Made by a program: the position numbers and the translations under genes | Shown here: positions 1 through 19,514 of the stretch, in pieces | How the letters are laid out: the number at the start of each line of letters is the position of its first letter | Numbering within the stretch: the stretch's first letter is position 1 | Notes under the pieces: generated by a model | Seen by the model: only the letters and a program-made list of their open reading frames with translations | Databases searched by the model: none | What the model was told of the DNA's origin: nothing | From: Candidatus Woesearchaeota archaeon | GTDB taxonomy: Archaea > Nanobdellota > Nanobdellia > Pacearchaeales > GW2011-AR1 | Length of the DNA: 64,000 bases | NCBI GenBank assembly: GCA_964497435.1 | Contig: CAZCCD010000003.1 | Coordinates: 53,683-117,682, forward strand | Direction of reading: 5' to 3'

Positions 1-1439
1 AAATCAATTTTTAATTTCATAAATTCCTTGATTTTAATTAAATTATGTTTTTTCCACCATACATATCTCTGCTTTTTAACATTTAATTCTTTTAAGGAAT
101 ATTTCTCAAAAACATTTTTAATCGGGTCTCCGCATAAAAAATCTTCCTCAAAAATTTGAAGATGATCCATTAAATTTATTTCATTAACTTTATTACCTTC
201 AATTGGAAGAGTCCTTGGAACAGCGATGAATGACCTCCCCTCTTTCAAATCAGTTGGTTTAATCTCGATAAGCCCATCTTCCCCTAAAGAAAAAAGAGAG
301 TGATCTTGAGTTACTTTTATCTTTCTTCCTGTAGATGTTAATACTTCATAAATATCTTTTTTAACTTTGTGTTTAATGTATGAGCTTGGTTTAACAAAAA
401 TAATCTTGCCTTTTTCATCAATTGTCATAACTTCTGCATCTATTTTCTTTTCTACAAATTCTTTAATAGTTACATTTCTAATAATTCCTTTTTCCTTCAC
501 AATTATTTTTGAATCACCTGTAACACTGTCTTCAATACTGACGATTCTTGCTTCTGGAGGTATAAAGAATACTATCGCATTCAACAAAGTCGTTTTTCCC
601 GACGCTGTTCCTCCTGTTATAAGTATATTCATCTTATATTCTATTAAAAGCCACAGATAAGCTATCATTTCAGGGCTTAGAGTGTTCATTGACAATAATT
701 TAGGAGGAGTCCAGGGAGTTTTTGTGAATTTTCTAATTGTGAATGTAGGGCCCTTGCTTGTTATGTCTTTAGTGTAAGTTGCATTTACCCTGCTCCCATC
801 AGGAAGACTTCCATCAAGTATAGGATTAGCATATGAAATATATTTCCCGGCTCTTTGTGCAATCTTTTCTATAAAACTAGTAAGCCTTTCAAGGTCATTA
901 AATATAACACTTGTCCTCATATTCCTAAATATTCTATGGACTATGTATATATGATTATCGACTCCATTACACTCTACGTCCTCAACAAAATAATCTTTTA
1001 TAAGAGGATCAACCTCATTATAGCCTACAAAATCTCTAACAATATAATAATAAATTTTAGAGTAAGTTTCGTAACTCATCATTATCCCAAGCTCAACAGC
1101 TATAAGTTTGAATCTCTTGTCAATGTAATCAAGAAGATTATCAAGGCTTTTTTCAACAACCTCCTCAAAGTTAACTAGATCTCTCATTGCAGAAATTATC
1201 TGGTCTTTATATGTTTCTTCTATTTCATTTAATTGAGGTTCTTCAACATCATAAACTAACTCATAGTTTTTAAAATCCCAATAAATATGAGTAAAACAAA
1301 AAGGAGAAACTAAAGCATATCTTACATCTATCTTTGTTTTATCTCGTATTTTTTTTAAATTTGGAACTCTTGGATTAAAGTCCAGAGCTACTCTCGGATA
1401 ACTTTCTATTCCAGGAACCAGTTTACTTTTATTATCCAT
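1..1439 (-). CDS. Type IV pilus/archaellum-family secretion ATPase (FlaI/TadA/VirB11-GspE superfamily), 3'-truncated by window edge, interrupted by an intein
   Basis: Reverse translation from ATG at 1439 gives MDNKSKLVPG...; the conserved ...PDGSRVNATY...GPTFTIRKF region; Walker A GGTASGKTTLLNAI; then ...RIVSIED followed by intein-like sequence (SVTGDSKIIVKEKG..., block-B-like GRKIKVTQDHSLF). Not in ORF track because it runs off the window. Confidence 0.8.
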   Translation of the reverse strand, partial: MDNKSKLVPGIESYPRVALDFNPRVPNLKKIRDKTKIDVRYALVSPFCFTHIYWDFKNYELVYDVEEPQLNEIEETYKDQIISAMRDLVNFEEVVEKSLDNLLDYIDKRFKLIAVELGIMMSYETYSKIYYYIVRDFVGYNEVDPLIKDYFVEDVECNGVDNHIYIVHRIFRNMRTSVIFNDLERLTSFIEKIAQRAGKYISYANPILDGSLPDGSRVNATYTKDITSKGPTFTIRKFTKTPWTPPKLLSMNTLSPEMIAYLWLLIEYKMNILITGGTASGKTTLLNAIVFFIPPEARIVSIEDSVTGDSKIIVKEKGIIRNVTIKEFVEKKIDAEVMTIDEKGKIIFVKPSSYIKHKVKKDIYEVLTSTGRKIKVTQDHSLFSLGEDGLIEIKPTDLKEGRSFIAVPRTLPIEGNKVNEINLMDHLQIFEEDFLCGDPIKNVFEKYSLKELNVKKQRYVWWKKHNLIKIKEFMKLKID

Positions 1440-3825: not shown

Positions 3826-4333
3826 TTATTTCTTGAGATATTATGAAATAAAAATTTTCTCCTTTTCTTATTTCAAAAGTGTAATTTGTATCATATTTCT
3901 GGACATTTATTACATACTTAACAGGGCTCCCATATGAAGTTATACTTGATGGAATTGTTATCTTGTTTCCATTATCATATGTAAATGTATCCATATTAAT
4001 TACATCGGGGCCTATTGGTGGTGTTGTCCTGTTTCCTACTATGTATATTATTTCAACATCTTCTCTGACATAACTCGAGAAATTCCTTGTGAAGCTATTC
4101 CACGAATATACTCCAGTATATGCTCCTTGATTTAATATTTTCCCACTTTCAACACCCAATTCTTCAGCAAGTTTTTCTACTCTTGTATTGATTATTTTTT
4201 TTGAAGTGTTTGTTATTAATATAAGGCCTGCCATGAGAGCTATTATGGCCATTGCAGCAATTAAATAAATCTGACCTCTTTTATTCGACCACGCCTGGAC
4301 AAATTGACCTCCTTTATCCTCTTTTTTAATCAT
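3797..4333 (-). CDS. Archaeal type IV pilin-like protein
   Basis: N-terminus ...SNKRG|QIYLIAAMAIIALMAGLILI (KRGQ motif). First gene of a co-directional pilin-pilin-pilin-pilin-pilin-ATPase array. Confidence 0.65.
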   Translation of the reverse strand: MIKKEDKGGQFVQAWSNKRGQIYLIAAMAIIALMAGLILITNTSKKIINTRVEKLAEELGVESGKILNQGAYTGVYSWNSFTRNFSSYVREDVEIIYIVGNRTTPPIGPDVINMDTFTYDNGNKITIPSSITSYGSPVKYVINVQKYDTNYTFEIRKGENFYFIISQEINGEIYVATN

Positions 4334-4442: not shown

Positions 4443-4702
4443 GTAGACTCAGAGGTTTGCTGCTTAAAACACCAAAAAGTTTTTCTTATTCTTTCTCGGT
4501 TTTGCGACCCGCCAAGCACCTTAACAAATGTTTAGGGCTGCTCCGATCAAGGCCTGACCCATTTTGCATCTGCAAGATCAAGACGGACAAAACGTCAACG
4601 TCCGAATAAGGGCTTACTGATATTCCAATCACGCCCCTCCTTACAGTCTGCCATAAAGCCCATTTGCAAGCAGCGGAGGGCTAACCCGCCAACCTAGTCT
4701 AC
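4443..4702 (-). ncRNA. Signal recognition particle RNA (SRP/7S RNA), archaeal type (boundaries approximate)
   Basis: A GC-rich island in AT-rich DNA. The minus strand has GGGUCAGGCC...GGAGCAGCC, matching the conserved helix-8 motif GUCAGGUCC/GGAAGCAGCC. The 5' GUAGACU pairs with the 3' AGUCUAC to form a terminal helix. A TATA-like TTTTTAAATAAA sits about 30 nt upstream on the minus strand. Confidence 0.65.
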
Positions 4703-4734
4703 ATTTTTACTTTAAGAATGTTTATTTAAAAACC

Positions 4735-4947
4735 TTACTCTTGAGGCGATCTGCCTGTTGAGTTTCCAAATCTATAGGAAACATACCTCTCATAGAGAGA
4801 AGGATCTCGTGGAGGCAAAGGATTTGAATGAATTGTCGTAAACAATCCTGTTGGATTAAGCTCTCCAAGCCTGTCAATTATGCTTTTCCCTATTGTTATG
4901 CTATCTACAGATTCATCTTCCTTTCTGTCGTATTCTTCATTTATCAT
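4735..4947 (-). CDS. Hypothetical small protein (uncertain)
   Basis: 70-aa ORF of non-repetitive composition directly upstream of the SRP RNA promoter; no recognisable motif. Confidence 0.3.
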   Translation of the reverse strand: MINEEYDRKEDESVDSITIGKSIIDRLGELNPTGLFTTIHSNPLPPRDPSLYERYVSYRFGNSTGRSPQE

Positions 4948-5203
4948 CTACAACACCTCTTTTTATATTATATAAACTTTATTGTATTTAAGCTTTACTT
5001 TTTGTTAATAAAATCTAGAGTATAACATAAATAATGAATACACTCGCTTTAACTCGTGCCTCGACTTTAATATTAATATAAAATTAGTAAAGTCAAAACA
5101 CTCGGCTCGTACATTAACTATAAATTAACCTAGTAAAATCTAATAGACAAATTCATAGCTGGGATTAATATTCGATATGATTTTAGAATTAATAATAAAT
5201 CAA

Positions 5204-5971
5204 TTACTTTATTGGAACAACTTTGTTATTAACAATTATCTGTTTTGGAACCTTACCTTTAGATTTTGAAAAATAATTCCATATTAATATAATTGCAAGT
5301 ATTATAATTATTAATCCAAACGACCTTGCTGGTGATTTAATAAAGTTATTTATACCAGAAAGGAAAGCACCTGTTATGCTATCTGTTACACTTGATTCAC
5401 ATTCCTTAAATGTTGCTGGTTTCAATGTTTCTGTCCCGCAGGCATTTTGATCTTCACAAGTTCTTGTCCCGCATTGGCCTTCTACATTACTCCATTTACT
5501 ACATGACCAGCTTTCTACACATGCTGTTGAGATTCCAGGCTCGTTATTTGAAGATATTGTGATGACAGAACCTCCACCGCCATTGCCACCATTTCCATTA
5601 CCTCCACCTCCACCGCCATTACCCCCATTGCCACCATTTCCATTAGGAGGCAATTCTCCACAACTTCTTGTGTTGAATGGTGGATCACAGTTTTTAGGCC
5701 TCAAATTTTCAGTATCGCATAAAGGATTTGTTTGGATGCAGATAAATGTCTTTTGATTATTCTCCTCACATGTCGTTTCATCCCAGAAACTTGAACTCCA
5801 ATCTTCTTGGCATCCTGCAAAAACTCCTCCGCCAGTGCTTACTTTTAAAAATCCATGCTCTGTTTCAGCGATTGAAAATCCAAATCCTCCAATAGCTAAC
5901 GCTAAAATAAACATCACAATTGCAAATTTTTTTTGTTTCATTTCCATCAGAACGTATTTAATTTTACTCAC
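5204..5971 (-). CDS. Cys-rich secreted, membrane-anchored protein with Gly/Asn-rich linker
   Basis: N-terminal signal/TM, many Cys, an NGNGGNGGNGGGGGGNGNGG linker, C-terminal TM helix. Its start overlaps the stop of the giant gene by 8 nt. Confidence 0.6.
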   Translation of the reverse strand: MSKIKYVLMEMKQKKFAIVMFILALAIGGFGFSIAETEHGFLKVSTGGGVFAGCQEDWSSSFWDETTCEENNQKTFICIQTNPLCDTENLRPKNCDPPFNTRSCGELPPNGNGGNGGNGGGGGGNGNGGNGGGGSVITISSNNEPGISTACVESWSCSKWSNVEGQCGTRTCEDQNACGTETLKPATFKECESSVTDSITGAFLSGINNFIKSPARSFGLIIIILAIILIWNYFSKSKGKVPKQIIVNNKVVPIK

Positions 5972-8900
5972 AATCTAAATCTTCAATATCTATATCTCCA
6001 TCACAATCATTATCTATTGAATCATCACAAACTTCAGTTTCAGGTACACACTCTGGCTCAGGCTCTTCACATATGTTTGTCAAAGATTCAATCCAGTATT
6101 CTAGCTCATGAACCCCAGGTCCTATCGCACTCATGTCTTCTGAATCAAGCTCAAGGTGCAATTCAAATTCTGTCCTGCCATTTATCTCACTGCATTGTAA
6201 CTGAAGGAATTCAGCATCTGTTATAAACCAGCATAATCCTGTTTCAGGGTCCCAGAAATCACCAACTTCTCCACATTCTTGTTCTGTTAAGCCAGATTCA
6301 TGCCTTAATCCAACTGTGGCACTCTCTCCTGTTTCAGGATTTGTTATTATAGCATTCATATCCCCAGGAGTCACAAGGCCTTCTATCTTATTTAGCCAGA
6401 ACTTAATGCTGTTGTCTCCCCTCATGCAAATATTGTAAGTAAAGTCACAAATACCGCCTTCTTCAGGGTCAATTCCGCATATTGCAGGGGTTATAAATTC
6501 AACAAAAATACCATCTAAAAGAGTTTCTTCAACTTCTTTACAATTTTCATTTCCATTACCATCTTCTGCACAGACCTTAAGAATATAATCTCCAGCAGGA
6601 AGTTCTTTGTTCATTATACCTTCCCATGTTACTGTCTGTCCATAATGCACAATATTTAAGTCAATTTCTCTAAGTGGTTCGTCTCCTTCATCTACAGGAG
6701 TTGCCCATAATTCAGCCCATGCTCTTATTACGCCTGATTTTTCATCATCTATTGAAGCAACTATTTTCTGGACACACATTTCTATTTCTCTTTCGTTTGA
6801 ATTAGGATTCCTTATTATTATTTCAGGACCTGCAGAGTCAACATTATCCCATTCAATGTTTGCTTCTCCAACATTTCCTAGGGCATCTCTGCAGAACCAT
6901 TCAATATTATGTAGTGAATCTTCCTGGAAGTTAAATCCATAACCATCTTCTTCTGTTAAAGAACAACAGAAAGGAACCCAATCTTGTGATTCTTCACTAT
7001 ACAATTCTTCAATTTCTCCTCCAAATTGTTTGCAATATTGCTCTGTTAAGAATGGAGGAGTTTCTTGATTATCGTCATCCCATGATATTCTATAACAAAG
7101 AGATTCATGGTCAACAGGATGTGGTTCTCCATCTTTACAGCTTAAAGTTATTGGTGTTTCACCTGTGACAAACCATGCAGGCCATTCTCCTTGAGGTCCG
7201 CATAATTCTTCATCACCTACACAAGGATATTTTGGCTCTCCAACTTCTTTATCTGTTAAAGGAGCTGTATTATCAACAAACACACACTGTTTATTCACTC
7301 TTTCTGTTTTTTCAACATTATCAACACTGTAGTATTCAATTAGGTGGCATGATTCCTCGGTTTTATAGAATGGAATGCCATGATAAGTGTTCCATTCACC
7401 TCGTCCAACAGCTTGCTGGCAAACATCTTGATTCAAACAGTTCTCATCATCAACAAGAGTATTTCTCCAGAAAGTTTCACTTATTCCAGAAGGATGAGGT
7501 GCCTGATCTCCACCATCAAGGTAAACAGCTGTTTCAGAGCTTATCCATGCAGGGAACCATTCTTCTTTTTCTTCATCAAACTCACACATTTCTTTTAAGC
7601 ATAATTCAAGTGCTTCACCATCTTCTCCAGCTTCATATCTGCACCAATCCTGACAAGTAAAGTAAGGACCATCAAATGACTTTGTTGTAACTGGTGGTGT
7701 TTTATCAACAATAAATGTTTCTTCATCAACTACTCTATTTCCTAGAGCATCTTCACACTCTATTACTAGATTATGGCTTGATTCTTCTGGGAATTGAACT
7801 ATAAACTCACTTCCAAGTTCATCATCGCCAGGTATAACATTTCCACCATTAACAGTGTAACTCCATTCACAAGTCACATCATTTACAGGATGAGGTTGAG
7901 GATCTTCAACACTAACATGAATTTCAGTAACACCATCAATATAACATACATCTTGGCTACCCGGTTTTGGAGGGCATTGTCCGTAACTAGGGCCCACAAT
8001 TTCTTTAGTTATTTTAGGAGGCACTGAATCAACAATATCAATTTCTCTATGTGGTTCTTCAGCTGTTCCATCTGAATTTCCAAGAGCATCAACACAATAC
8101 CATTCTAAAACATGTCTTGAATCTTCTTCTTTGTAAATTGTAACTTCTCCATCTTCTTCAACCCAATATTCAGGAGGCCGGCTTCCCTCTAAATAATCTC
8201 TCCAGTAAAGAGTCACATCATCTATTGGATGTGGTTCTTGATCAGCACAAGATAGAGTTATTGGAGTTTGTTGAGTTATGAACCAATCACACTGTCCATC
8301 TTGAGGTTCTGGTGGTTGACCGCCAATTCCACATGTACCTTCTTCAATTTCATAAGCTTTTAAATGATTATTCTCGAACATTCTTACCCAGATAGCACTC
8401 ACTGGGAAAGTAGCATCATCACACTCTAAATCTTCAGGCCTGTCTCCTGGTGCAGAAAATTCTCCGAGATTTGTCTTTGAGTCTTTGTCAAATCTAAATA
8501 TTTTATCCCCACCATTATTTGCTAAATATAAATCTTCTCCTCCAACAGCAATACCGCTATTCCCAAAAGGAATTCCTGGGGCAAAGCTATCAACAACTGA
8601 ACCAGTTAAATTTAATTCATAAACAGTTGGTCCAACATCACGACTAAACCATATTCTATCATCGCTGTCAGAATTTGGATCGTTTTCGTCATATGCTAAA
8701 CCATCACAAAAATGGAAATGATCTCCTGGAAGTGTTTCTATTAGTGTTACATCACCATTTAATTCTAATTTATATAACTTATTTGGAACACCATTTGAAC
8801 AAGCCCATATTACATTTCTCTTTGCATCATAACCCATTGCACCTAAATTTATTGCCGGACTTGTAGCCAACTCTCCTATTTCTGAGCCATCGTCTGGATT

Positions 8901-12548: not shown

Positions 12549-13346
12549 CTATATAGGATTCTCACTCTTTGCAGGTTCTGGGAATTTGCCATTAATAGCC
12601 TTGTTTACAATATCTTTGACTTCAGCAGAAAAATCTGTACTAATCATCCATTGAAAATATGAAGGATCGCTTTTGGATACAAATTCAAGTGTTTTCCCTT
12701 TGTATTTATTTCCAAAATTTATAATAGCCTTTCCTTCAAACCACGCAAATTTCCCATCCTCATCGATCCATAAGGGATTTTTTGGATTACAAAATTCATA
12801 CAAACCAGAAATGTCATGTGGTAAAACATCATGCTGCCCTAATTGAGATTCAAGGACATCTATTGTTGCTCTAACGTCAGAATGTGCCCGGTGAGCGCTT
12901 TCTAAAGGTTTGTCGCAATATTTTAAATGAGCCGCATTTAAATCTCTTGGCTCTAACTTATGATAAATAGTTTGAACATCTACTATTTTTCTTCCCTCTC
13001 TTGAATAATTTATCCCTGCTCTTTTAAATTCAGATTCAAGAAATAATAAATCAAATTTGGTTCCAAATCCACCTAAATCGCAATTATTTATAAAATCAAT
13101 TAATTTTTTGGCAAATTCTTTGAAGGTTGGTTTCCCTTTAACATCAGCATCTTTTATGCCATGAATTTGTGTGGATTCAATAGGGATAAGCATATCAGGA
13201 TTGATAACAGAATTTAAGGTTTCTTCTGTTCCATCCGGATGGATTTTTATTATGCATATCTCTATAATTTTATCTTGCTGGGTATTTAGACCGGTTGTTT
13301 CAATGTCAATAAATGCAATGGGTCTTGTAAGTTGTAGACTTGTCAT
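12549..13346 (-). CDS. DEDDh 3'-5' exonuclease (DnaQ/RNase T-like)
   Basis: Exo I FIDIETTGL; Exo III HRAHSDVRAT. Confidence 0.75.
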   Translation of the reverse strand: MTSLQLTRPIAFIDIETTGLNTQQDKIIEICIIKIHPDGTEETLNSVINPDMLIPIESTQIHGIKDADVKGKPTFKEFAKKLIDFINNCDLGGFGTKFDLLFLESEFKRAGINYSREGRKIVDVQTIYHKLEPRDLNAAHLKYCDKPLESAHRAHSDVRATIDVLESQLGQHDVLPHDISGLYEFCNPKNPLWIDEDGKFAWFEGKAIINFGNKYKGKTLEFVSKSDPSYFQWMISTDFSAEVKDIVNKAINGKFPEPAKSENPI

Positions 13347-13497: not shown

Positions 13498-13710
13498 ATG
13501 AGATTAAAAAAGATACCAAGGACAGATTTAGAGTATGTTGAATTTTATGCTAAAAAACTTAAAGAAAACCCTGAATTTTTCAAACAGCAGAAAGAGTTAA
13601 TAGAAAGCCAGCTAGAAAGCAGCTCTTCTTTGGCTAAAAAAAGGTTTCCAAAAGAAGACTTTAAAATTCAGGCAAGAATTTATCTAAAGAAAATAGGGCT
13701 TCTTTCTTAA
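13498..13710 (+). CDS. Hypothetical small protein
   Basis: 70-aa ORF, charged, plausible coding composition. Confidence 0.3.
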   Translation: MRLKKIPRTDLEYVEFYAKKLKENPEFFKQQKELIESQLESSSSLAKKRFPKEDFKIQARIYLKKIGLLS

Positions 13711-14507
13711 TAACTATACCATAAGACTAATTTTCCTTCATCGTCTCTTAAAAATAGGCTGTCTCCTGTTTCTGTCCAGATATATTCTTCTTCATTCCAG
13801 AATAAAACATTATCTTTATCTTCTTCATATCCAATCTCTATCCTAATTTCTTTATTTAATGTAAAATTAGAAAAAGTGAATATCTTTCTTCCTTCATCTT
13901 TTATTGTCCAGTTGTCTAAATTACAAGAAAATGAACAGCTGTTTTCCAAGATTACACTTTGGTCTTTTACATTTAATTGTTTTAATTCTATACAACTAGA
14001 ACATTCATCTTCTGATTTTTCACATAAATTCAAATTATTTTCAAGGCAGATATTCCAAGCAGCTTTAAAATCATTATAATATTTATCTTTACCTTGAGGG
14101 AAATAAAAGTTTGCAAAGCCATTTTCAACTAATTTAAGATTTACATTTTCTTCATCAACTATAACATATCTTAATTTTCTTTTGTATAAATCTAAATCCT
14201 GTCCAACCCTCTCCATCCTTACAAACCTATTAAGAATTAAATTTTCTAAAAATTTTTTAGATTCATCGTAATACAACTGGCCTTTTTCAGGAGTGTTGAT
14301 TCCAAGAAGCCTTACACTTGTTCCGTTAACTTTTATTGTATCTCCATCAATTACTCTCTCAACTATTCCAACTTCATAATCATTAAGCCAATTAGTCAGC
14401 AGTTTGTTAAGAAAAGGATAGTCTATTATAAAAAGAATTAATATTAACAATGATATTAAGAGTTTCAGCTTTATTTTTTCTTTTTCTTTTTTTTCCAGTT
14501 TAACCAT
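13707..14507 (-). CDS. Membrane-anchored thermonuclease (staphylococcal nuclease/SNase-like) with C-terminal beta-rich domain
   Basis: N-terminal TM; VIDGDTIKV...VRLLGINTPE matches the SNase catalytic core (DGDT...RLxGIDxPE). Confidence 0.75.
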   Translation of the reverse strand: MVKLEKKEKEKIKLKLLISLLILILFIIDYPFLNKLLTNWLNDYEVGIVERVIDGDTIKVNGTSVRLLGINTPEKGQLYYDESKKFLENLILNRFVRMERVGQDLDLYKRKLRYVIVDEENVNLKLVENGFANFYFPQGKDKYYNDFKAAWNICLENNLNLCEKSEDECSSCIELKQLNVKDQSVILENSCSFSCNLDNWTIKDEGRKIFTFSNFTLNKEIRIEIGYEEDKDNVLFWNEEEYIWTETGDSLFLRDDEGKLVLWYSY

Positions 14508-14762
14508 ATATAATGTGAGGAACCAAGGTTCCCCTTCACAACCCCTCCTTTAAAATAGTAAGAGTATTTTATATTAATTATGGTAGAGGAAAACATTGGT
14601 TTTATGAACTTCATTCCACCGCCACGATATTTAGTCTCACTTCGTTCGATATTGATAAATTGTTAATATATAAAAGCTTAATTATTCTTTGCTTAACTAT
14701 ACTTCTGCTTTACACAGAGAATGCGACTATTCTTGGCTTTATTCTGTAACCTTTTTAATAAG

Positions 14763-14784
14763 TGAGCGAGTTTACGAGTTAGCT
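14763..14784 (+). promoter_or_regulatory. GC-rich motif TGAGCGAGTTTACGAGTTAGCT immediately upstream of the TATA-like box of cutA
   Basis: 22/24 identical to the reverse complement of 40876-40897, which sits upstream of the cyclophilin gene. AAATTATATATA follows at about 14812, ATG at 14844. Confidence 0.4.
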
Positions 14785-14843
14785 TTTGAGCAAAACGAAG
14801 TGGTGTGAGTAAATTATATATACCTCTTCCTCTTTACAAAATT

Positions 14844-15161
14844 ATGAAATCCAAAAACTTAATCTTTATATACATAACAAACCCCTCAAAAGAAGAAGCT
14901 GAAAAAATAGCTAAATATTTATTAGAACAGAAGCTGATTGCTTGCGCAAATATATTTCCTATTCATAGCATGTATTGGTGGAAAGGAAAGATAGTTGAAG
15001 AAGGCGAGTTTGTGTTAATTGCAAAAACTCTGGAAACTAATTATAAAAAAGTTAAAGACGAAGTTGAAAAAATCCACTCCTACACTATTCCATGTATAAT
15101 AAAAATTCCTGTAAATCCCAACGAAAAATATGGTGATTGGCTAGAAGGAGAGTTAAAATGA
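14844..15161 (+). CDS. cutA: Divalent-cation tolerance protein CutA
   Basis: ACANIFPIHSMYWWKGKIVEEGEFVLIAKT matches the CutA1 core (ACxNI...S.YxWKG.I.E..E). Confidence 0.75.
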   Translation: MKSKNLIFIYITNPSKEEAEKIAKYLLEQKLIACANIFPIHSMYWWKGKIVEEGEFVLIAKTLETNYKKVKDEVEKIHSYTIPCIIKIPVNPNEKYGDWLEGELK

Positions 15162-15451
15162 ATTTCAACGAACGATGTTATTCTGTATTAAGGAAAGTCC
15201 CTCGTGGCAAAGTTACAACCTATGGTGAAATAGCTAAAGCATTAAATTCTAAAGCATATAGGGCTGTTGGAAATGCAATGAACAAGAATCCATATGCGCC
15301 TAAAGTCGCATGCCATAGAGTAATAAATAGCGACGGAACTCTCGGCGGGTTTGCATCTGGAATAAAGAATAAAGTTAAAATGCTAAAAGCAGAAGGTGTT
15401 GAAGTTGTTAATAATAGGGTGGATTTGGATAGATTTCTTTATAAATTTTAG
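15158..15451 (+). CDS. MGMT-family protein (methylated-DNA-protein-cysteine methyltransferase DNA-binding/active-site domain only)
   Basis: YGEIAKAL...VACHRVINSDGTLGGFASG carries the PCHRV active-site motif; ATGA start/stop overlap with cutA. Confidence 0.7.
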   Translation: MNFNERCYSVLRKVPRGKVTTYGEIAKALNSKAYRAVGNAMNKNPYAPKVACHRVINSDGTLGGFASGIKNKVKMLKAEGVEVVNNRVDLDRFLYKF

Positions 15452-15527
15452 ATTTCTATAATTCTTCTAATTAATTAACAGCTACAAACAATAACCTTTT
15501 TAAGTAGACTTCTGTAAAAGTTATATC

Positions 15528-15633
15528 GCGAGGGTGTCGGAGCGGTCAAACGAGCAGCCCTTAAGTTAATAATCGATATTAGAAGAAAGGCTGTGGCTTA
15601 GTGCCTGCGCAGGTTCGAATCCTGTCCCTCGCA
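15528..15633 (+). tRNA. tRNA-Leu(UAA) with 22-nt intron at 37/38
   Basis: Acceptor GCGAGGG pairs perfectly with CCCTCGC; T-arm GCAGG-TTCGAAT-CCTGT; discriminator A73; anticodon stem CAGCC/GGCTG; loop CUUAAG, then intron 15566-15587 (ttaataatcgatattagaagaa), then A38; long variable arm. Confidence 0.75.
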
Positions 15634-15663
15634 TGAATATGTGTGGAAATTAGAGCTTGAAAT

Positions 15664-16077
15664 ATGGCAAGAATAGTACTTTTATCGTGTGTAAGTAGAA
15701 AATTAGGACATAAAGCCAAGGCTAAAGAATTGTATATTAGTACTCTTTTTAAAATGAATTTGAAGTATGCAGAATCGTTTAGCCCCGATAAAATATTCAT
15801 TCTTTCTGCAAAACATGGTTTAGTTGGTTTGGAGGAGGAAATTGAACCCTACAATAAAACACTAAATAATATGCTTTCTAAAGATATTAAAGAGTGGGCA
15901 AATAATGTTATTAGTGAATTAAGAAAAGTTGCAGACTTGGCAAACGACGAATTTATTTTTTTAGCAGGGAACAAATATAGAAAATTTTTGATTCCTCACA
16001 CCACAAAGTACAAAATCCCACTCGAAGGGCTAGGCATAGGAAAACAATTGTGGTTTTTAAAGGAGAAAATAGCATGA
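15664..16077 (+). CDS. Conserved hypothetical protein (unassigned family), first gene of a two-gene module
   Basis: 137 aa, MARIVLLSC...ELYISTLF...IFILSAKHGL...EPY...W; starts 30 nt after tRNA-Leu; stop overlaps the next gene by ATGA. Confidence 0.6.
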   Translation: MARIVLLSCVSRKLGHKAKAKELYISTLFKMNLKYAESFSPDKIFILSAKHGLVGLEEEIEPYNKTLNNMLSKDIKEWANNVISELRKVADLANDEFIFLAGNKYRKFLIPHTTKYKIPLEGLGIGKQLWFLKEKIA

Positions 16078-16709
16078 ACAAATTTTGCAACAAAGTCCAT
16101 CAGCTTATTAACAGCATGAAAAGATTCAATTTTCCTTTTGATGAAAGCAAAATTCCAAATGATGGAATCTATGTTTTGTTTGAAAAAGGCGAGAAAGGAC
16201 ATGGTTTTGACAGAATTGTAAGAATAGGAACGCACACTGGTAGTAATCAATTAAGATCAAGATTATTCCAACATTTCTTAAACGAAAACAAAGACAGAAG
16301 CATCTTTAGGAAAAATATTGGAAGAGCCTTGCTTAATAAAGCAAGAGACCCATTTCTTAATCTATGGGAATTAGATTTAACGACGAAAAAAGCCAGAGCA
16401 GAGCTTGCTGGAAAAATCAATTTATCAAGACAAAAAGAAATTGAAAAAGAAGTCACAAAATATATCCAGGATAACTTCAGTTTTGTTGTCTTTGAAGTTC
16501 CACAAAAAAATAAGCGCCTCAATTTCGAAGCAAAATTAATATCAACAGTTTCCCTCTGCGAAGAATGTGAACCCTCACAAAATTGGCTTGGATTGTTATC
16601 TCCAAAAAATAAAATAAGAGAGAGCGGACTTTGGCAAGTTAATGAGCTTTACAAAGAACCATTAAATGAGAATGATTTTGATGAATTGCGAAAAATTATT
16701 AAAAAATAA
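16074..16709 (+). CDS. GIY-YIG family nuclease
   Basis: GIYVLFEKGEKGHGFDRIVRIGTHTGSNQLRSRLFQH reads as GIY...(R/Y)IG...R...H, the GIY-YIG catalytic core. Confidence 0.65.
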   Translation: MNKFCNKVHQLINSMKRFNFPFDESKIPNDGIYVLFEKGEKGHGFDRIVRIGTHTGSNQLRSRLFQHFLNENKDRSIFRKNIGRALLNKARDPFLNLWELDLTTKKARAELAGKINLSRQKEIEKEVTKYIQDNFSFVVFEVPQKNKRLNFEAKLISTVSLCEECEPSQNWLGLLSPKNKIRESGLWQVNELYKEPLNENDFDELRKIIKK

Positions 16710-16760
16710 TTTTTTACTAACTGATTCAAATATCTTACACAATCTTATATTGATTAAATA

Positions 16761-16961
16761 CTACTTCTTCCCTTGCTGAATTTTCACTCCAAGCTCTTCA
16801 AGTCTCTTTATATGGCCATGAATGAGAGCATCAACAACATGAACCAATCTTACAAATTCTGTTCTTTCGTTGACTAATGTGTTTAATGCGCCTTTATGAT
16901 AGCCAATTTCTTCTTCCCGAGACATTCTTGGAGTTTTTTCCTGTGTTACCATGAAAATCAA
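16761..16961 (-). CDS. Hypothetical small protein
   Basis: 66-aa ORF with coding-like composition. Confidence 0.35.
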   Translation of the reverse strand: MIFMVTQEKTPRMSREEEIGYHKGALNTLVNERTEFVRLVHVVDALIHGHIKRLEELGVKIQQGKK

Positions 16962-17140
16962 TATTCAGTATATTTATAAAGGTAATCTTTAATATCAGTC
17001 CCGCCCCAATCCCCAACCACCCACCCTAAGATTTTAAGTAATTAGGTAATATCTACAATCAATTTTTCATAAAGTATATTGCTAAACAGATTAATCCAAT
17101 TTTCAAAACCTTTATAACTTCTTTCTTCTTATCCTGTTTT

Positions 17141-17758
17141 ATGAAAGATAAACCCCTATTATTTGTATTAACAGACAAGAAATTTTCCTTCCTTGATAAA
17201 AGTCTTTTTATTTTGTATTCGCTAGGATTAATATTCTGCTTTTACCTCCTTGCAAGGACGTTTTGGATAGACCTAAAAATAAATTACCTCGGCCTGATTA
17301 TCGCTTTAATTTTATTATTTTTACTTCCTAAAATCCAGCAAAAATACAAAGACAAATCTCGCACAGTTAAACAACGTAGATTTGCTAAGGCAAGTGATTA
17401 TGCTGCGGAAGCTGTTTCAAAACTACCGGGTGCTTATGTAAAAACACAACTTTCAATTTATATGTTGGGAATTTTATTTCTTGTGACCATTATTTTTACC
17501 ATTATTATACTTGCCATTTTAAAGCTAATGTATGTTACTGTCTTTGGAGTTTACTTGTCTTTAATAGTATTCATTTTAGAGGGTGTTGTTTTTTCTTTAT
17601 TTGTTATAAAAATAGTTATTAGAGAATATCGTTATTATAATCAAGTTGCAGCCAAAATTAATATTAAATATATTCCTTTAAAGTATAAGATAATTGCTTG
17701 GACAATTTTTACTCTAATCTGTATACTCGTTATTTATAGAGTATTATTTGTTAAGTAG
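17141..17758 (+). CDS. Hypothetical integral membrane protein
   Basis: Multiple hydrophobic helices. Confidence 0.5.
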   Translation: MKDKPLLFVLTDKKFSFLDKSLFILYSLGLIFCFYLLARTFWIDLKINYLGLIIALILLFLLPKIQQKYKDKSRTVKQRRFAKASDYAAEAVSKLPGAYVKTQLSIYMLGILFLVTIIFTIIILAILKLMYVTVFGVYLSLIVFILEGVVFSLFVIKIVIREYRYYNQVAAKINIKYIPLKYKIIAWTIFTLICILVIYRVLFVK

Positions 17759-17828
17759 TTTTGGTAAGTTTTATAATCTCTATTATCTTTATTTCGTCAT
17801 ATCCTTTTTTAGGAGGTAAAAAAGTCAA

Positions 17829-19514
17829 ATGAAAAAAGTGGTGGTCGATGTTTTAGAGAAAGCGTTAAAAGAGCTTAAAGTAGAAATCACTAGAGAGGAA
17901 ATAGAAAAACTTATAGAAATTCCTCCTTCACTCGAATTTGGAGATTATGCTTTTCCTTGCTTTTTTTTGGCTGATAAATTAAAAACCTCTCCTCATTATG
18001 CTGCCCTTGAATTAAGAAAAGTAATCCAAACTCCCTCATTCACAGATTTTGATGATATCCAGACTCAAGGACCGTATCTCAATTTTTTTATTGATAGAAA
18101 AAACCTAGCTAGACAAGTTGTTTGGGAAATAATTAATCAAAAGAAAAATTATGGGAGAGTTAATTTAGGAAAAAGAAAGAAAGTTATTGTAGAAATGTCC
18201 TCACCAAATATTGCAAAGCCATTTGGAATAGGCCATTTGAGGTCAACAATAATAGGAAACTCTCTCTCAAAAATACACGAGTTTTTAGGATATAAAACAA
18301 TAACAATGAATTACCTTGGAGATTGGGGGGCCCAGTTTGGAAGAATCCTTTTTGGTTATACAAAATTCGGCAGAGAAGATTTCCTATTAAAAAATCCTAT
18401 TCACCATCTATTAAATGTCTATGTTAAGGCGAGTAAAAAAAGATATGACAAAGACGCAAAAGAATGGTTTAAAAAACTCGAAGAAAAAGACAAAAAAGCC
18501 TTACTCCTCTGGAAATTATTTAAAACACTTGGGACAAAGGATTTTGAAAAAATTTACAAATTAATGGGAATTAAATTTAATGTTTATTCTTCGGAATCAG
18601 AGTCTATCAAGTACACTAAAAAAGTCCTCGCAGAGATGCAATTAAAAGGGCTTGTAAAAAAAAGCCAAGGAGCATTGATTGTTGATTTGAAGAAATATGG
18701 CTTAGATGTCTCTATTCTTATAAAAAGCGACGGCACAACAACATATGCTTTAAGAGATCTTACTGCAGCAATAAGAAGATACAAAAAATACAAATTCAGT
18801 TCTATGATTTATGAAGTAGGTCAAGAACAAACCCTCTACTTTAAACAATTATTCAAGATGTTAGAGTTAATGGGTTATGAATGGTCAAAAAATTGTATCC
18901 ATGTTTCTCATGGTTTGTATCTAGATCAAAGAGGCAAGAGAATGGCAACAAGAAAAGGAAAAATAATTTTCATGAATGATATTATTGATGAAACAATATC
19001 TCTTGCAAAAAAAGAAATCTCAAAGAGGTCTAAGGTAAGTAAAGAAGAGTTGGAAAGAAGGGCAAAGAAAGTAGCAACCGCAGCAATTTTCTACGGCGAT
19101 TTAAAAAACAACAGAAACAACAACATGATTTTTGATATTAAGAAATTCGTGTCTTTCGAGGGAGATACGGGTCCTTATCTTCTCTACAGCTACGCAAGGG
19201 CAACATCAATTTTAACAAAGGCAGGAAGCGACGAGAAATTCAAGGTTTATGATTTAGAAAATAAAGAGTTAGAGCTTGTACAAAAATTATCCATCTTTCA
19301 AGATGTTGTAATAAAATCTTATAAAACATTAAACCCATCGATAATAGCTAATTATTCTTATCAGCTCTCAAAAATCTTCAATGAATTTTATCATACATGC
19401 CCTGTAATAGGTTCTCAGCAAGAAGAATTCAGGCTTGCATTAGTCGAAGCCTTCAGAGTTGTTTTAAAACACTCTCTGAATCTTTTGGGAATTGAAACTC
19501 TCGAGGAGATGTGA
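17829..19514 (+). CDS. argS: Arginyl-tRNA synthetase
   Basis: Class I HIGH region SSPNIAKPFGIGHLRSTIIGN; overall ArgRS architecture at 561 aa. Confidence 0.85.
   Translation: MKKVVVDVLEKALKELKVEITREEIEKLIEIPPSLEFGDYAFPCFFLADKLKTSPHYAALELRKVIQTPSFTDFDDIQTQGPYLNFFIDRKNLARQVVWEIINQKKNYGRVNLGKRKKVIVEMSSPNIAKPFGIGHLRSTIIGNSLSKIHEFLGYKTITMNYLGDWGAQFGRILFGYTKFGREDFLLKNPIHHLLNVYVKASKKRYDKDAKEWFKKLEEKDKKALLLWKLFKTLGTKDFEKIYKLMGIKFNVYSSESESIKYTKKVLAEMQLKGLVKKSQGALIVDLKKYGLDVSILIKSDGTTTYALRDLTAAIRRYKKYKFSSMIYEVGQEQTLYFKQLFKMLELMGYEWSKNCIHVSHGLYLDQRGKRMATRKGKIIFMNDIIDETISLAKKEISKRSKVSKEELERRAKKVATAAIFYGDLKNNRNNNMIFDIKKFVSFEGDTGPYLLYSYARATSILTKAGSDEKFKVYDLENKELELVQKLSIFQDVVIKSYKTLNPSIIANYSYQLSKIFNEFYHTCPVIGSQQEEFRLALVEAFRVVLKHSLNLLGIETLEEM

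Follow-up and report, generated by a model that had tools for sequence, protein, structure and literature searches.

A DUF6884 and GIY-YIG nuclease gene pair beside an archaeal tRNA-Leu gene: a PDC-M57 cassette with a possible role in sensing unusual DNA bases

We analyzed a stretch of 64,000 nucleotides (nt) from a Candidatus Woesearchaeota archaeon of the Pacearchaeales lineage (assembly GCA_964497435.1, contig CAZCCD010000003.1, positions 53,683 to 117,682; hereafter the window), in which a tRNA-Leu(UAA) gene is followed on the same strand by two overlapping open reading frames (ORFs), A and B (Table 1). ORF A belongs to the DUF6884 family and ORF B to the GIY_YIG_3 family of nucleases, and the locus is a new member of a catalogued two-gene family, PDC-M57. 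A preliminary description, made from the sequence alone, had given the coordinates of these features, the 30-nt gap behind the tRNA gene, the ORFs of 137 and 211 amino acids (aa), their ATGA overlap and several motifs in the two proteins, and we confirm all of these. It was equally right about the intron-containing tRNA-Leu(UAA), which matches the Rfam tRNA model at 44.3 bits, and about the second protein being a GIY-YIG nuclease, as seen from its PF26468 matches, fold and conserved residues. It was mistaken in placing the first protein outside all recognizable families, since DUF6884 is matched along the full length at 155 bits.

Table 1. Features of the cassette in the window and tRNA genes next to related cassettes in other archaeal contigs
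Contig	Feature	Position	Strand	Remarks
Window	Putative archaeal promoter element, TATA-like, CTTTTTAAGTAGA	15496-15508	+	About 20 nt 5' of the tRNA; role suggested by the sequence
Window	tRNA-Leu(UAA)	15528-15633	+	RF00005 match; exon 1 15528-15565, exon 2 15588-15633; CCA not encoded
Window	ORF A, 137 aa, DUF6884 / PDC-M57A	15664-16077	+	Predicted YaaA-fold DNA-binding, base-inspecting subunit; starts 30 nt 3' of the tRNA
Window	Shine-Dalgarno-like AAGGAG	16060-16065	+	Within the 3' end of A, 8 nt 5' of the start of B
Window	ORF B, 211 aa, GIY_YIG_3 (PF26468) / PDC-M57B nuclease	16074-16709	+	Predicted catalytic Y33, R63, H67, E152, N190
Window	T6 tract, possible archaeal terminator	16710-16715	+	Directly 3' of the stop codon of B; read from the sequence
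L003	tRNA-Lys-CUU with intron	1210-1347		At most 55 nt upstream of the cassette
L004	tRNA-Lys-CUU	5043-5137		About 450 nt upstream
L074	tRNA-Lys-CUU	3967-4083		About 510 nt upstream, one gene between
L072	tRNA-Lys-CUU	5805-5879		166 nt downstream, opposite strand
L051	tRNA-Thr-UGU (tRNA-Thr-CGU further upstream)	7373-7444		145 nt upstream
L017	tRNA-Ser-CGA	5777-5860		About 110 nt upstream
L073	tRNA-Gly-CCC	4501-4586		1 nt before the start codon of the partner gene

Family assignment and linkage of A and B

The start codon of B (ATG, 16074-16076) and the stop codon of A (TGA, 16075-16077) are interlocked, so that the genes share 4 nt; together with the AAGGAG element this overlap points to translational coupling. 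Other A-B loci have likewise kept a start/stop overlap, of 4 or 8 nt. Both ORFs can be taken as real genes, because A has 1078 homologues and B has 4952 (1738 clusters at 50% clustering), and the exact A and B proteins recur on other contigs.

ORF A matches the Pfam family DUF6884 (PF21818) with 155.2 bits, against a cutoff of 30, and its residues 4-134 span the entire profile (1-135 of 135). The two motifs known to be conserved in DUF6884, CxxxK and LSAxxG (PMC11701544), appear in it as C9-V-S-R-K13 and L47-S-A-K-H-G52; C9, K13, L47, S48 and A49 are invariant in 30 homologues of A, and G52 is found in at least 90% of them. The fold recovered for the modelled protein is the YaaA-like α/β "cantaloupe", and that for B is the α/β fold of GIY-YIG nucleases, with the N-terminal domain of UvrC among its top structural matches. 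A Foldseek search of the PDB with the ORF A model gave nothing significant. Sequence searches of PDB chains with A, B and their profiles returned only noise, NCBIfam has no model for either ORF, and the PHROGs families matched by the pair are all of unknown function.

In the case of ORF B, a precomputed match to GIY_YIG_3 (PF26468) exists for the identical protein P0001 and for 120 of 120 B homologues among the matches listed; the classical GIY-YIG model, PF01541, does not match B at an E-value of 0.01. Y33, R50, H54, R63, H67 and E152 are invariant in all 38 diverse B sequences compared, and N190 is kept in 36 of the 38, with the equivalence of catalytic residues assigned by motif order and secondary structure and not by residue-level superposition. 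The signature of B is peculiar in that the second tyrosine, that of YIG, is replaced by an invariant arginine (R50-I-G). The spacing of R63-x3-H67 and the position of the glutamate mirror those in I-TevI. There is also a conserved K73DRSIFRKN81 motif, and C5, H9, C162 and C165, conserved in about 90% of the sequences, may bind zinc. Identity among archaeal and bacterial homologues of B is 50-78%. When compared to the GIY-YIG restriction endonucleases, such as R.Eco29kI, T4 EndoII and the 5hmC-specific PD-T4-3 (PDB 9u75), B differs in having RIG and not the second YIG, in a helical insert of about 65 residues with the invariant KDRSIFRKN motif, in a C-terminal CxxC/GLWxVNE region, and in the lack of PDB-chain matches by sequence; its target recognition appears to be delegated to the separate DUF6884 subunit.

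Linkage of the two genes was surveyed at 38 archaeal and bacterial genome loci where B is complete or nearly so, and about 34 of the 38 have a DUF6884-type partner, adjacent, swapped in order or fused. The commonest arrangement, with A directly upstream of B, is seen at 22 loci, and at four (L003, L004, L005, L016) the two are fused into one ORF. A divergent A that keeps both motifs lies upstream of B at three loci (L008, L009, L019), a divergent A lies downstream at four (L013, L014, L040, L042), and a fragment of A is found upstream at one (L020); at the remaining four loci (L012, L017, L021, L041) a DUF6884 partner was not detected. Many B clusters are fusions of larger size, namely DUF6884-GIY3-DUF7662 (about 460 aa), Pif1 helicase-DUF6884-GIY3 and TPR-DUF6884-GIY3. 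The ATGA overlap, the fusions and the conserved adjacency all suggest that A and B are a functional pair.

Among these multi-domain forms (for example, P0263, P0276, P0299, P0261, and those on the viral contigs L079-L084), the common one has three domains, DUF6884 and GIY_YIG_3 with a C-terminal DUF7662 of about 70 aa, whose function is unknown, while Pif1 helicase, a Top1-type Zn ribbon and TPR arrays are rarer additions. A different partner is found on L073, a 692-kb JGI contig with a B close to that of the window: a 138-aa gene outside DUF6884 (4588-5004) is coupled by ATGA upstream of B, and its GSG...DxD pattern, without a Pfam match, is reminiscent of small nucleotidyltransferases.

The pair has a place in the PADLOC collection of defence models, where ORF A matches PDLC04712 (E-value 5.1e-60, profile positions 1-135 of 138) and ORF B matches PDLC04713 (8.2e-100, positions 1-210 of 211); these are the two models of PDC-M57, and the genes that match them over the full length are neighbours in the catalogued order. 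PDC-M57, made of DUF6884 and GIY_YIG_3, is cassette CAS_00183 with 46 occurrences, and it is one of 145 "phage defence candidates" (PDCs), which comprise single- and multi-gene candidates and were nominated by "guilt by embedding" in BREX, DISARM and type I restriction-modification (R-M) loci (Payne et al. 2024, bioRxiv 10.1101/2024.01.29.577857); the "M" evidently stands for multi-gene. We found no mention of PDC-M57 or DUF7662 in the papers searched. In Methanosarcina the homologues lie within a type I R-M/BREX region, the kind of setting on which the discovery method depends, whereas the copy in the window is a solo cassette next to a tRNA gene, and its surroundings in this small, AT-rich archaeal genome are housekeeping genes.

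Distribution, insertion site and association with tRNA genes

Homologues of B with 50-65% identity are carried in Archaea by Pace- and Woesearchaeota, Methanosarcina, Methanoperedenaceae, Promethearchaeota and marine group III, and in Bacteria by Planctomycetes, Nitrospira, Bacteroidota, Bacillota and Haemophilus parainfluenzae. In a neighbour-joining tree of B the archaeal and bacterial sequences are intermixed, and the window protein falls in a clade that is mostly DPANN and euryarchaeal. The neighbourhood of the pair is different in every DPANN genome examined, synteny with core genes is not kept among relatives, and the site is empty in one of them. On the metagenome contig of the latter, L060, the orthologous tRNA-Leu gene is followed, after 110 nt, by a homologue of a small ORF that also follows the cassette in the window (orf66; see below) and by the gene for ArgRS, which is 63% identical to its counterpart; neither A nor B is there, so that the cassette in the window fills exactly the gap between the tRNA gene and orf66. 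Because the relative is so distant, this is not a strain-level indel. A scan of metagenomes with the 27-nt 3' end of the tRNA-Leu gene gave 14 contigs, none of which (0 of 14) has A or B. A housekeeping pair conserved in the lineage would have refuted the preliminary description, and the pair is nothing of the kind; it is accessory and horizontally spread.

The neighbours of the pair are of several kinds. The preliminary description had suggested looking for it in defence islands, and such a setting does occur: in Methanosarcina siciliae the pair lies between fragments of a type I R-M S subunit and HSDR_N, and BrxL, a UvrD-like helicase and an SMC-like ATPase accompanied by a metallophosphoesterase are encoded nearby; variants of the pair in Paenibacillaceae abut hsdM. 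In bacteria, genes for serine recombinases and rve integrases also occur near the pair. In archaea, genes for EndoIII-type HhH-GPD glycosylases are found near the pair at five loci (L003, L004, L072, L074, L075), and the gene order in the clade of L003, L004 and L074 is tRNA-Lys, A-B, Toprim, EndoIII. Other repair and replication neighbours are NucS and AP_endonuc_2 (L054), Pyr_excise (L053), Nre (L073), Lhr (L075), RPA/SSB (L011, L072, L073), GINS and RecJ/Cdc45. The repair-gene signal is in part due to shared ancestry, because L003, L004 and L074 are one clade, and neighbours are weak evidence when genomes are as compact as those of DPANN archaea. In the L003/L004/L074 clade, which is of Pace/Woesearchaeota, a small Toprim-domain gene and then the EndoIII-type gene come after the pair in a run of overlapping or abutting genes (L003:2433-3991, L004:6620-7625, L074:5636-6647), with one extra ORF between these two in L003.

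Adjacency to tRNA genes, noted for the window in the preliminary description, is recurrent in other archaea: at 7 of 14 other archaeal loci, in addition to the window, a tRNA gene is found no more than about 520 nt from the cassette. Eight of the ten tRNAs detected at the 14 loci are less than 600 nt from the cassette, compared to about 10% expected (P ~5e-7). At least five tRNA identities are involved (Leu-UAA, Lys-CUU, Thr-UGU, Ser-CGA and Gly-CCC), and, though some of these loci share ancestry, neighbours in the B tree adjoin different tRNAs. This adjacency was not seen at the bacterial loci. It appears that the archaeal cassette repeatedly lands at tRNA genes without recognizable integration machinery and may be transcribed from them; possible causes are recombination anchors, decayed integrative elements, dependence on the tRNA promoter, or nuclease-driven targeting.

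As regards a classical tRNA-integrated element, the direct repeats of the tRNA 3' end that the preliminary description proposed as att sites were looked for; none bounds the cassette in the window. The 3' 22-mer of the tRNA-Leu gene occurs only once in the window at up to three mismatches, exact tRNA 3'-end repeats of 11 nt or more are absent within 20 kb downstream in the window, L003 and L017, and no meaningful repeats flanking the cassette were found. No integrase or recombinase is present, as only A and B lie between the tRNA gene and the conserved orf66-ArgRS block, and the GC content is 0.32-0.34 across the cassette, compared to 0.27-0.36 in the flanks. In the absence of an att repeat, an integrase and a GC shift, such an element is unsupported. 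The suggestion of a mobile or defence-type module thus survives in part, i.e., as an accessory, horizontally spread cassette and a PDC-M57 candidate, and fails as regards att repeat, integrase and composition shift. An att-bounded island was rejected, given that there is no repeat in the window and that, at the four other tRNA-adjacent loci, the cassette is bounded by nothing but an 11-nt AT-rich trailer string in L004, the sole repeat on that contig, about 0.9 kb beyond the cassette and of a length reached in 6 of 200 shuffled controls, so not clearly above chance. A composition-based island was rejected in the same way, for want of a GC shift. At L051:7527-7540, 83 nt downstream of the tRNA-Thr(UGU) gene, 14 nt of the 3' end of this gene are repeated. 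The copy stops some 50 nt short of the cassette, which it does not bracket, and may be a relic att site of another element.

Possible functions of the pair

Directly established are the family membership of the two proteins, their folds, the conservation of the predicted catalytic residues, linkage and fusion, the patchy occurrence of the pair, and a relative with an empty site. On this basis we propose that the cassette is a mobile module, made of a base sensor and a nuclease, for modification-dependent (type IV-like) restriction of DNA with unusual bases, and we put the probability of this at about 0.45, i.e., slightly short of even odds. ORF A would bind DNA and inspect a flipped-out base, the pocket for which would have the Cys-x3-Lys and LSAxxG motifs in its lining, and ORF B would be an active GIY-YIG endonuclease. 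Made in fixed proportion by translational coupling, and as a single polypeptide elsewhere, the two would act as one complex, in which A licenses B to cut DNA carrying a non-canonical base, the target being presumably foreign DNA. The match to PDC-M57 and the type I R-M/BREX settings speak for a defence role; for the base-reader idea speak the YaaA-family protein DpdC, which acts on preQ0 within DNA, an AlphaFold3 model, reported by the Pfam authors, of the DUF6884 protein YfjM flipping a base, and the viral DUF6884 genes that abut dpdA (see below). The cassette is inserted directly 3' of the tRNA-Leu gene, and read-through from the promoter of this gene probably drives its expression. A methyltransferase gene adjoins the pair neither in the window nor at most other loci, and the lack of a methyltransferase or immunity gene speaks for type IV-like logic; the predicted architecture, a base-reader module coupled to a nuclease without a cognate methyltransferase, would be that of type IV systems.

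Several observations weigh against such a restriction module. PDC-M57 became a candidate on gene context alone, and the PDCs are explicitly unvalidated. The neighbours in DPANN archaea are housekeeping genes, often for DNA repair, and not defence islands. Conservation of B at 50-78% identity across two domains of life is unusual in a defence protein. The second tyrosine of GIY-YIG is an arginine in B, which the classical Pfam model does not match, and B stands without a DUF6884 partner at L012, L017, L021 and L041 and has another small partner at L073. Finally, YfjM, a DUF6884 protein of B. subtilis, was enriched on DNA baits with abasic sites and ribonucleotides, and this points to repair.

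The last observation leads to the main alternative, in which the pair makes incisions in DNA repair. The defence and repair readings share the molecular mechanism, i.e., a subunit that inspects bases or lesions and licenses a GIY-YIG nuclease; in repair A would recognize damage to the DNA of the cell itself (abasic sites, ribonucleotides, deaminated or oxidized bases and the like), possibly by lysine or cysteine chemistry at the lesion, and B would nick beside it, like the N-terminal domain of UvrC or other alternative-excision nucleases. We regard repair as a serious rival, though less probable than defence. The enrichment of YfjM on abasic and RNA-base baits agrees with it, as does the view of the curators of Pfam, who proposed a repair role for DUF6884. 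The wealth of repair and replication genes around the archaeal pairs, including an MGMT-like gene just upstream in the window, the very high sequence conservation, and UvrC-N among the top structural matches are in line with this role. A patchy distribution is harder to reconcile with it, as the pair is missing from relatives that share the tRNA-Leu 3' end and from most genomes, and so is the embedding of the pair in type I R-M/BREX loci of Methanosarcina and Paenibacillaceae. The adjacency to tRNA genes might instead be explained by a selfish cassette, with a nuclease that is targeted by A, cuts near tRNA genes of cassette-free genomes and is copied there by repair. This would account for tree neighbours residing next to different tRNAs, for the presence/absence polymorphism exactly at the tRNA flank (the window versus L060), and for insertion with no integrase to explain it. 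We nevertheless consider it improbable, because the bacterial loci are not beside tRNA genes, NUMOD, IENR1 or another sequence-specific DNA-binding module was not detected with Pfam, the family has no member in 50,697 phage records and is rare in IMG/VR (11 loci), and the strong purifying selection and stable fusions with helicase, TPR and DUF7662 suggest a cellular function. Least probable of all is a toxin-antitoxin or abortive infection system, in which A would restrain a toxic nuclease B until infection. The two genes do form an overlapping accessory operon with the nuclease second; set against this, B is alone in some genomes, the frequent fusion of A and B and the swapped gene order speak against a toxin-antitoxin relationship, and the predicted fold of A, DNA-binding and enzyme-like with conserved pocket residues, would be atypical of an antitoxin.

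A homing-endonuclease-like element, as suggested in the preliminary description, has little support: Pfam gave no NUMOD, IENR1 or HTH domain, an intron, an intein or a match in the phage collection was not detected, and B is highly conserved although its sites differ; the NCBIfam model of group I intron endonucleases scores 12 bits, against a cutoff of 56. The Seg-type homing endonucleases of T4 are similar in that a GIY-YIG gene sits between conserved genes, with patchy presence and next to tRNA genes; SegB lies in the tRNA gene region of T4. In contrast to the Seg family, the A-B family is cellular and not phage-borne, is highly conserved, lacks DNA-targeting domains, and is usually partnered or fused with DUF6884. 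A phage origin of B was rejected, with no matches in the same 50,697 phage records and 11 weak or divergent ones in IMG/VR; the matches on haloarchaeal megaplasmids are only about 30% identical.

DUF6884 proteins of viruses may provide a hint at what the proposed base sensor would read. In Fusobacterium phage phiFN37 (L089:5197-7024), genes for a ParB-like protein, DpdA, a DUF6884 protein 45% identical to ORF A and a queuosine-precursor transporter lie together, and in Halorubrum virus HRTV-29 of the genus Dpdavirus (L088:6001-7126) the DUF6884 homologue overlaps dpdA. In Mycobacterium phage Rosebush (L087, gp1-gp8), the DUF6884 protein gp8 is next to the ParB/DpdA/QueC/D/E/FolE block; 28% of guanine in the DNA of this phage is replaced by dPreQ0. 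In Myxococcus phage Mx4 (L092:5870-7474), DUF6884 is fused to a DndB domain, the family of DpdB. Adjacency of DUF6884 and dpdA is thus seen in three virus lineages, or in three or four with ParB/DndB-like links counted. DUF6884 without dpdA is found in Caulobacter, Bradyrhizobium and Microbacterium phages, in ChaoS9, and probably in cluster G/K mycobacteriophages. Though not universal, these links make preQ0-type bases in invading DNA a candidate trigger for the cellular cassette.

In its specific form, this would make PDC-M57 a restriction system against viral DNA with 7-deazaguanine (preQ0-type) bases, where DUF6884 captures the modified base, perhaps via a Cys-nitrile adduct, and the GIY-YIG nuclease is directed to cut; we consider this version unlikely. 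It is suggested by the fold that DUF6884 shares with YaaA and DpdC, by the Cys-x3-Lys motif in common with ArcS, and by the viral homologues adjoining dpdA. DpdC is a YaaA-family enzyme that hydrates preQ0 to ADG within DNA, and ArcS, with its PC-x3-KPY motif, acts on preQ0 in tRNA. Compared to the YaaA/DUF328 superfamily, DpdC included, ORF A is half-size (137 aa against about 260-310 aa), stays below the DUF328 threshold (PF03883, 16.6 bits against 29.6), carries the Cys-x3-Lys motif and pairs with a nuclease, and the DpdC models of PADLOC reach only E-values of 1e-3 to 1e-2. Compared to the catalytic insert of the archaeosine synthase ArcS, A has no PUA or TGT-like domain; the likeness consists of a short motif and a moderate structural match, and the link to a preQ0 substrate is a hypothesis. 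AF0587 (2q07) may be an ArcS-family protein. No TGT (dpdA) or ParB (dpdB) gene adjoins the cassette in the window. A host nuclease that targets 7-deazaguanine, a widespread anti-restriction modification, would to our knowledge be the first of its kind.

The instance itself is ordinary, while the family is uncharacterized, and the habit of flanking tRNA genes and the deazaguanine connection are the leads to follow. DPANN archaea are symbionts with tiny genomes, mostly without CRISPR and R-M (PMC12988326); if the defence role is true, the cassette would be one of the few immune modules in these archaea, and the YaaA fold would be a new kind of base reader in modification-dependent restriction. 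If the 7-deazaguanine link is true, it would answer how hosts counter phages that replace guanine with preQ0-type bases, and if repair is the true role, there would be a new lesion-incision pathway common to Bacteria and Archaea. The pair, with 348 aa in total and highly conserved, is an easy biochemical target.

The tRNA-Leu gene and its surroundings

In a focused scan, the Rfam tRNA model RF00005 aligns to the tRNA-Leu gene of the window (44.3 bits, gathering threshold 29, E-value 2e-8), and the alignment places 25 extra nt in the anticodon loop. The intron proper, read by hand against the intron-less orthologue on L060, is 22 nt long (15566-15587) and is at the canonical position 37/38. The UAA anticodon and the long variable arm identify the tRNA as tRNA-Leu(UAA). 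The minimum-free-energy fold retains the acceptor, anticodon and T arms and does not display a canonical bulge-helix-bulge motif. The gene escaped both ARAGORN, run in bacterial mode, and a scan of the whole window with Rfam at gathering thresholds; both results are false negatives, the former because of the intron and the latter probably because of fast filters. The 13-mer CTTTTTAAGTAGA upstream of the gene has an identical copy at equal spacing 5' of the orthologous tRNA-Leu gene on L060. There is an oligo-T just 3' of the tRNA-Leu gene on L060, and none between the tRNA-Leu gene and ORF A, as read directly from the window.

The flanks of the pair in the window contain CutA, an MGMT-like gene (15158-15451), SNase and RNase_T. 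The SNase homologue (13707-14507, minus strand) is fused to a lamin-tail domain and is predicted to be membrane-anchored or secreted; with the RNase T/ExoX-like exonuclease (12549-13346, minus strand) and the MGMT-like gene it makes up a stretch rich in nuclease and repair genes just 5' of the pair. On the other side, orf66 (16761-16961, minus strand, 66 aa) has no family match and is 52% identical to the ORF found on L060 in the same place, between the genes for tRNA-Leu and ArgRS; it probably encodes a genuine small protein.

The neighbourhood of the tRNA-Leu gene is a rearrangement hot spot. The genes for ArgRS (minus strand), tRNA-Leu (plus strand) and an SNase-like protein (plus strand) are directly contiguous in three related contigs, L063, L068 and L071. 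In the window (13707-19514), the tRNA-Leu gene has CutA and the MGMT-like gene to one side and A, B, orf66 and a gene for a membrane protein to the other, and, when compared to these three contigs, it is inverted relative to its flanks.

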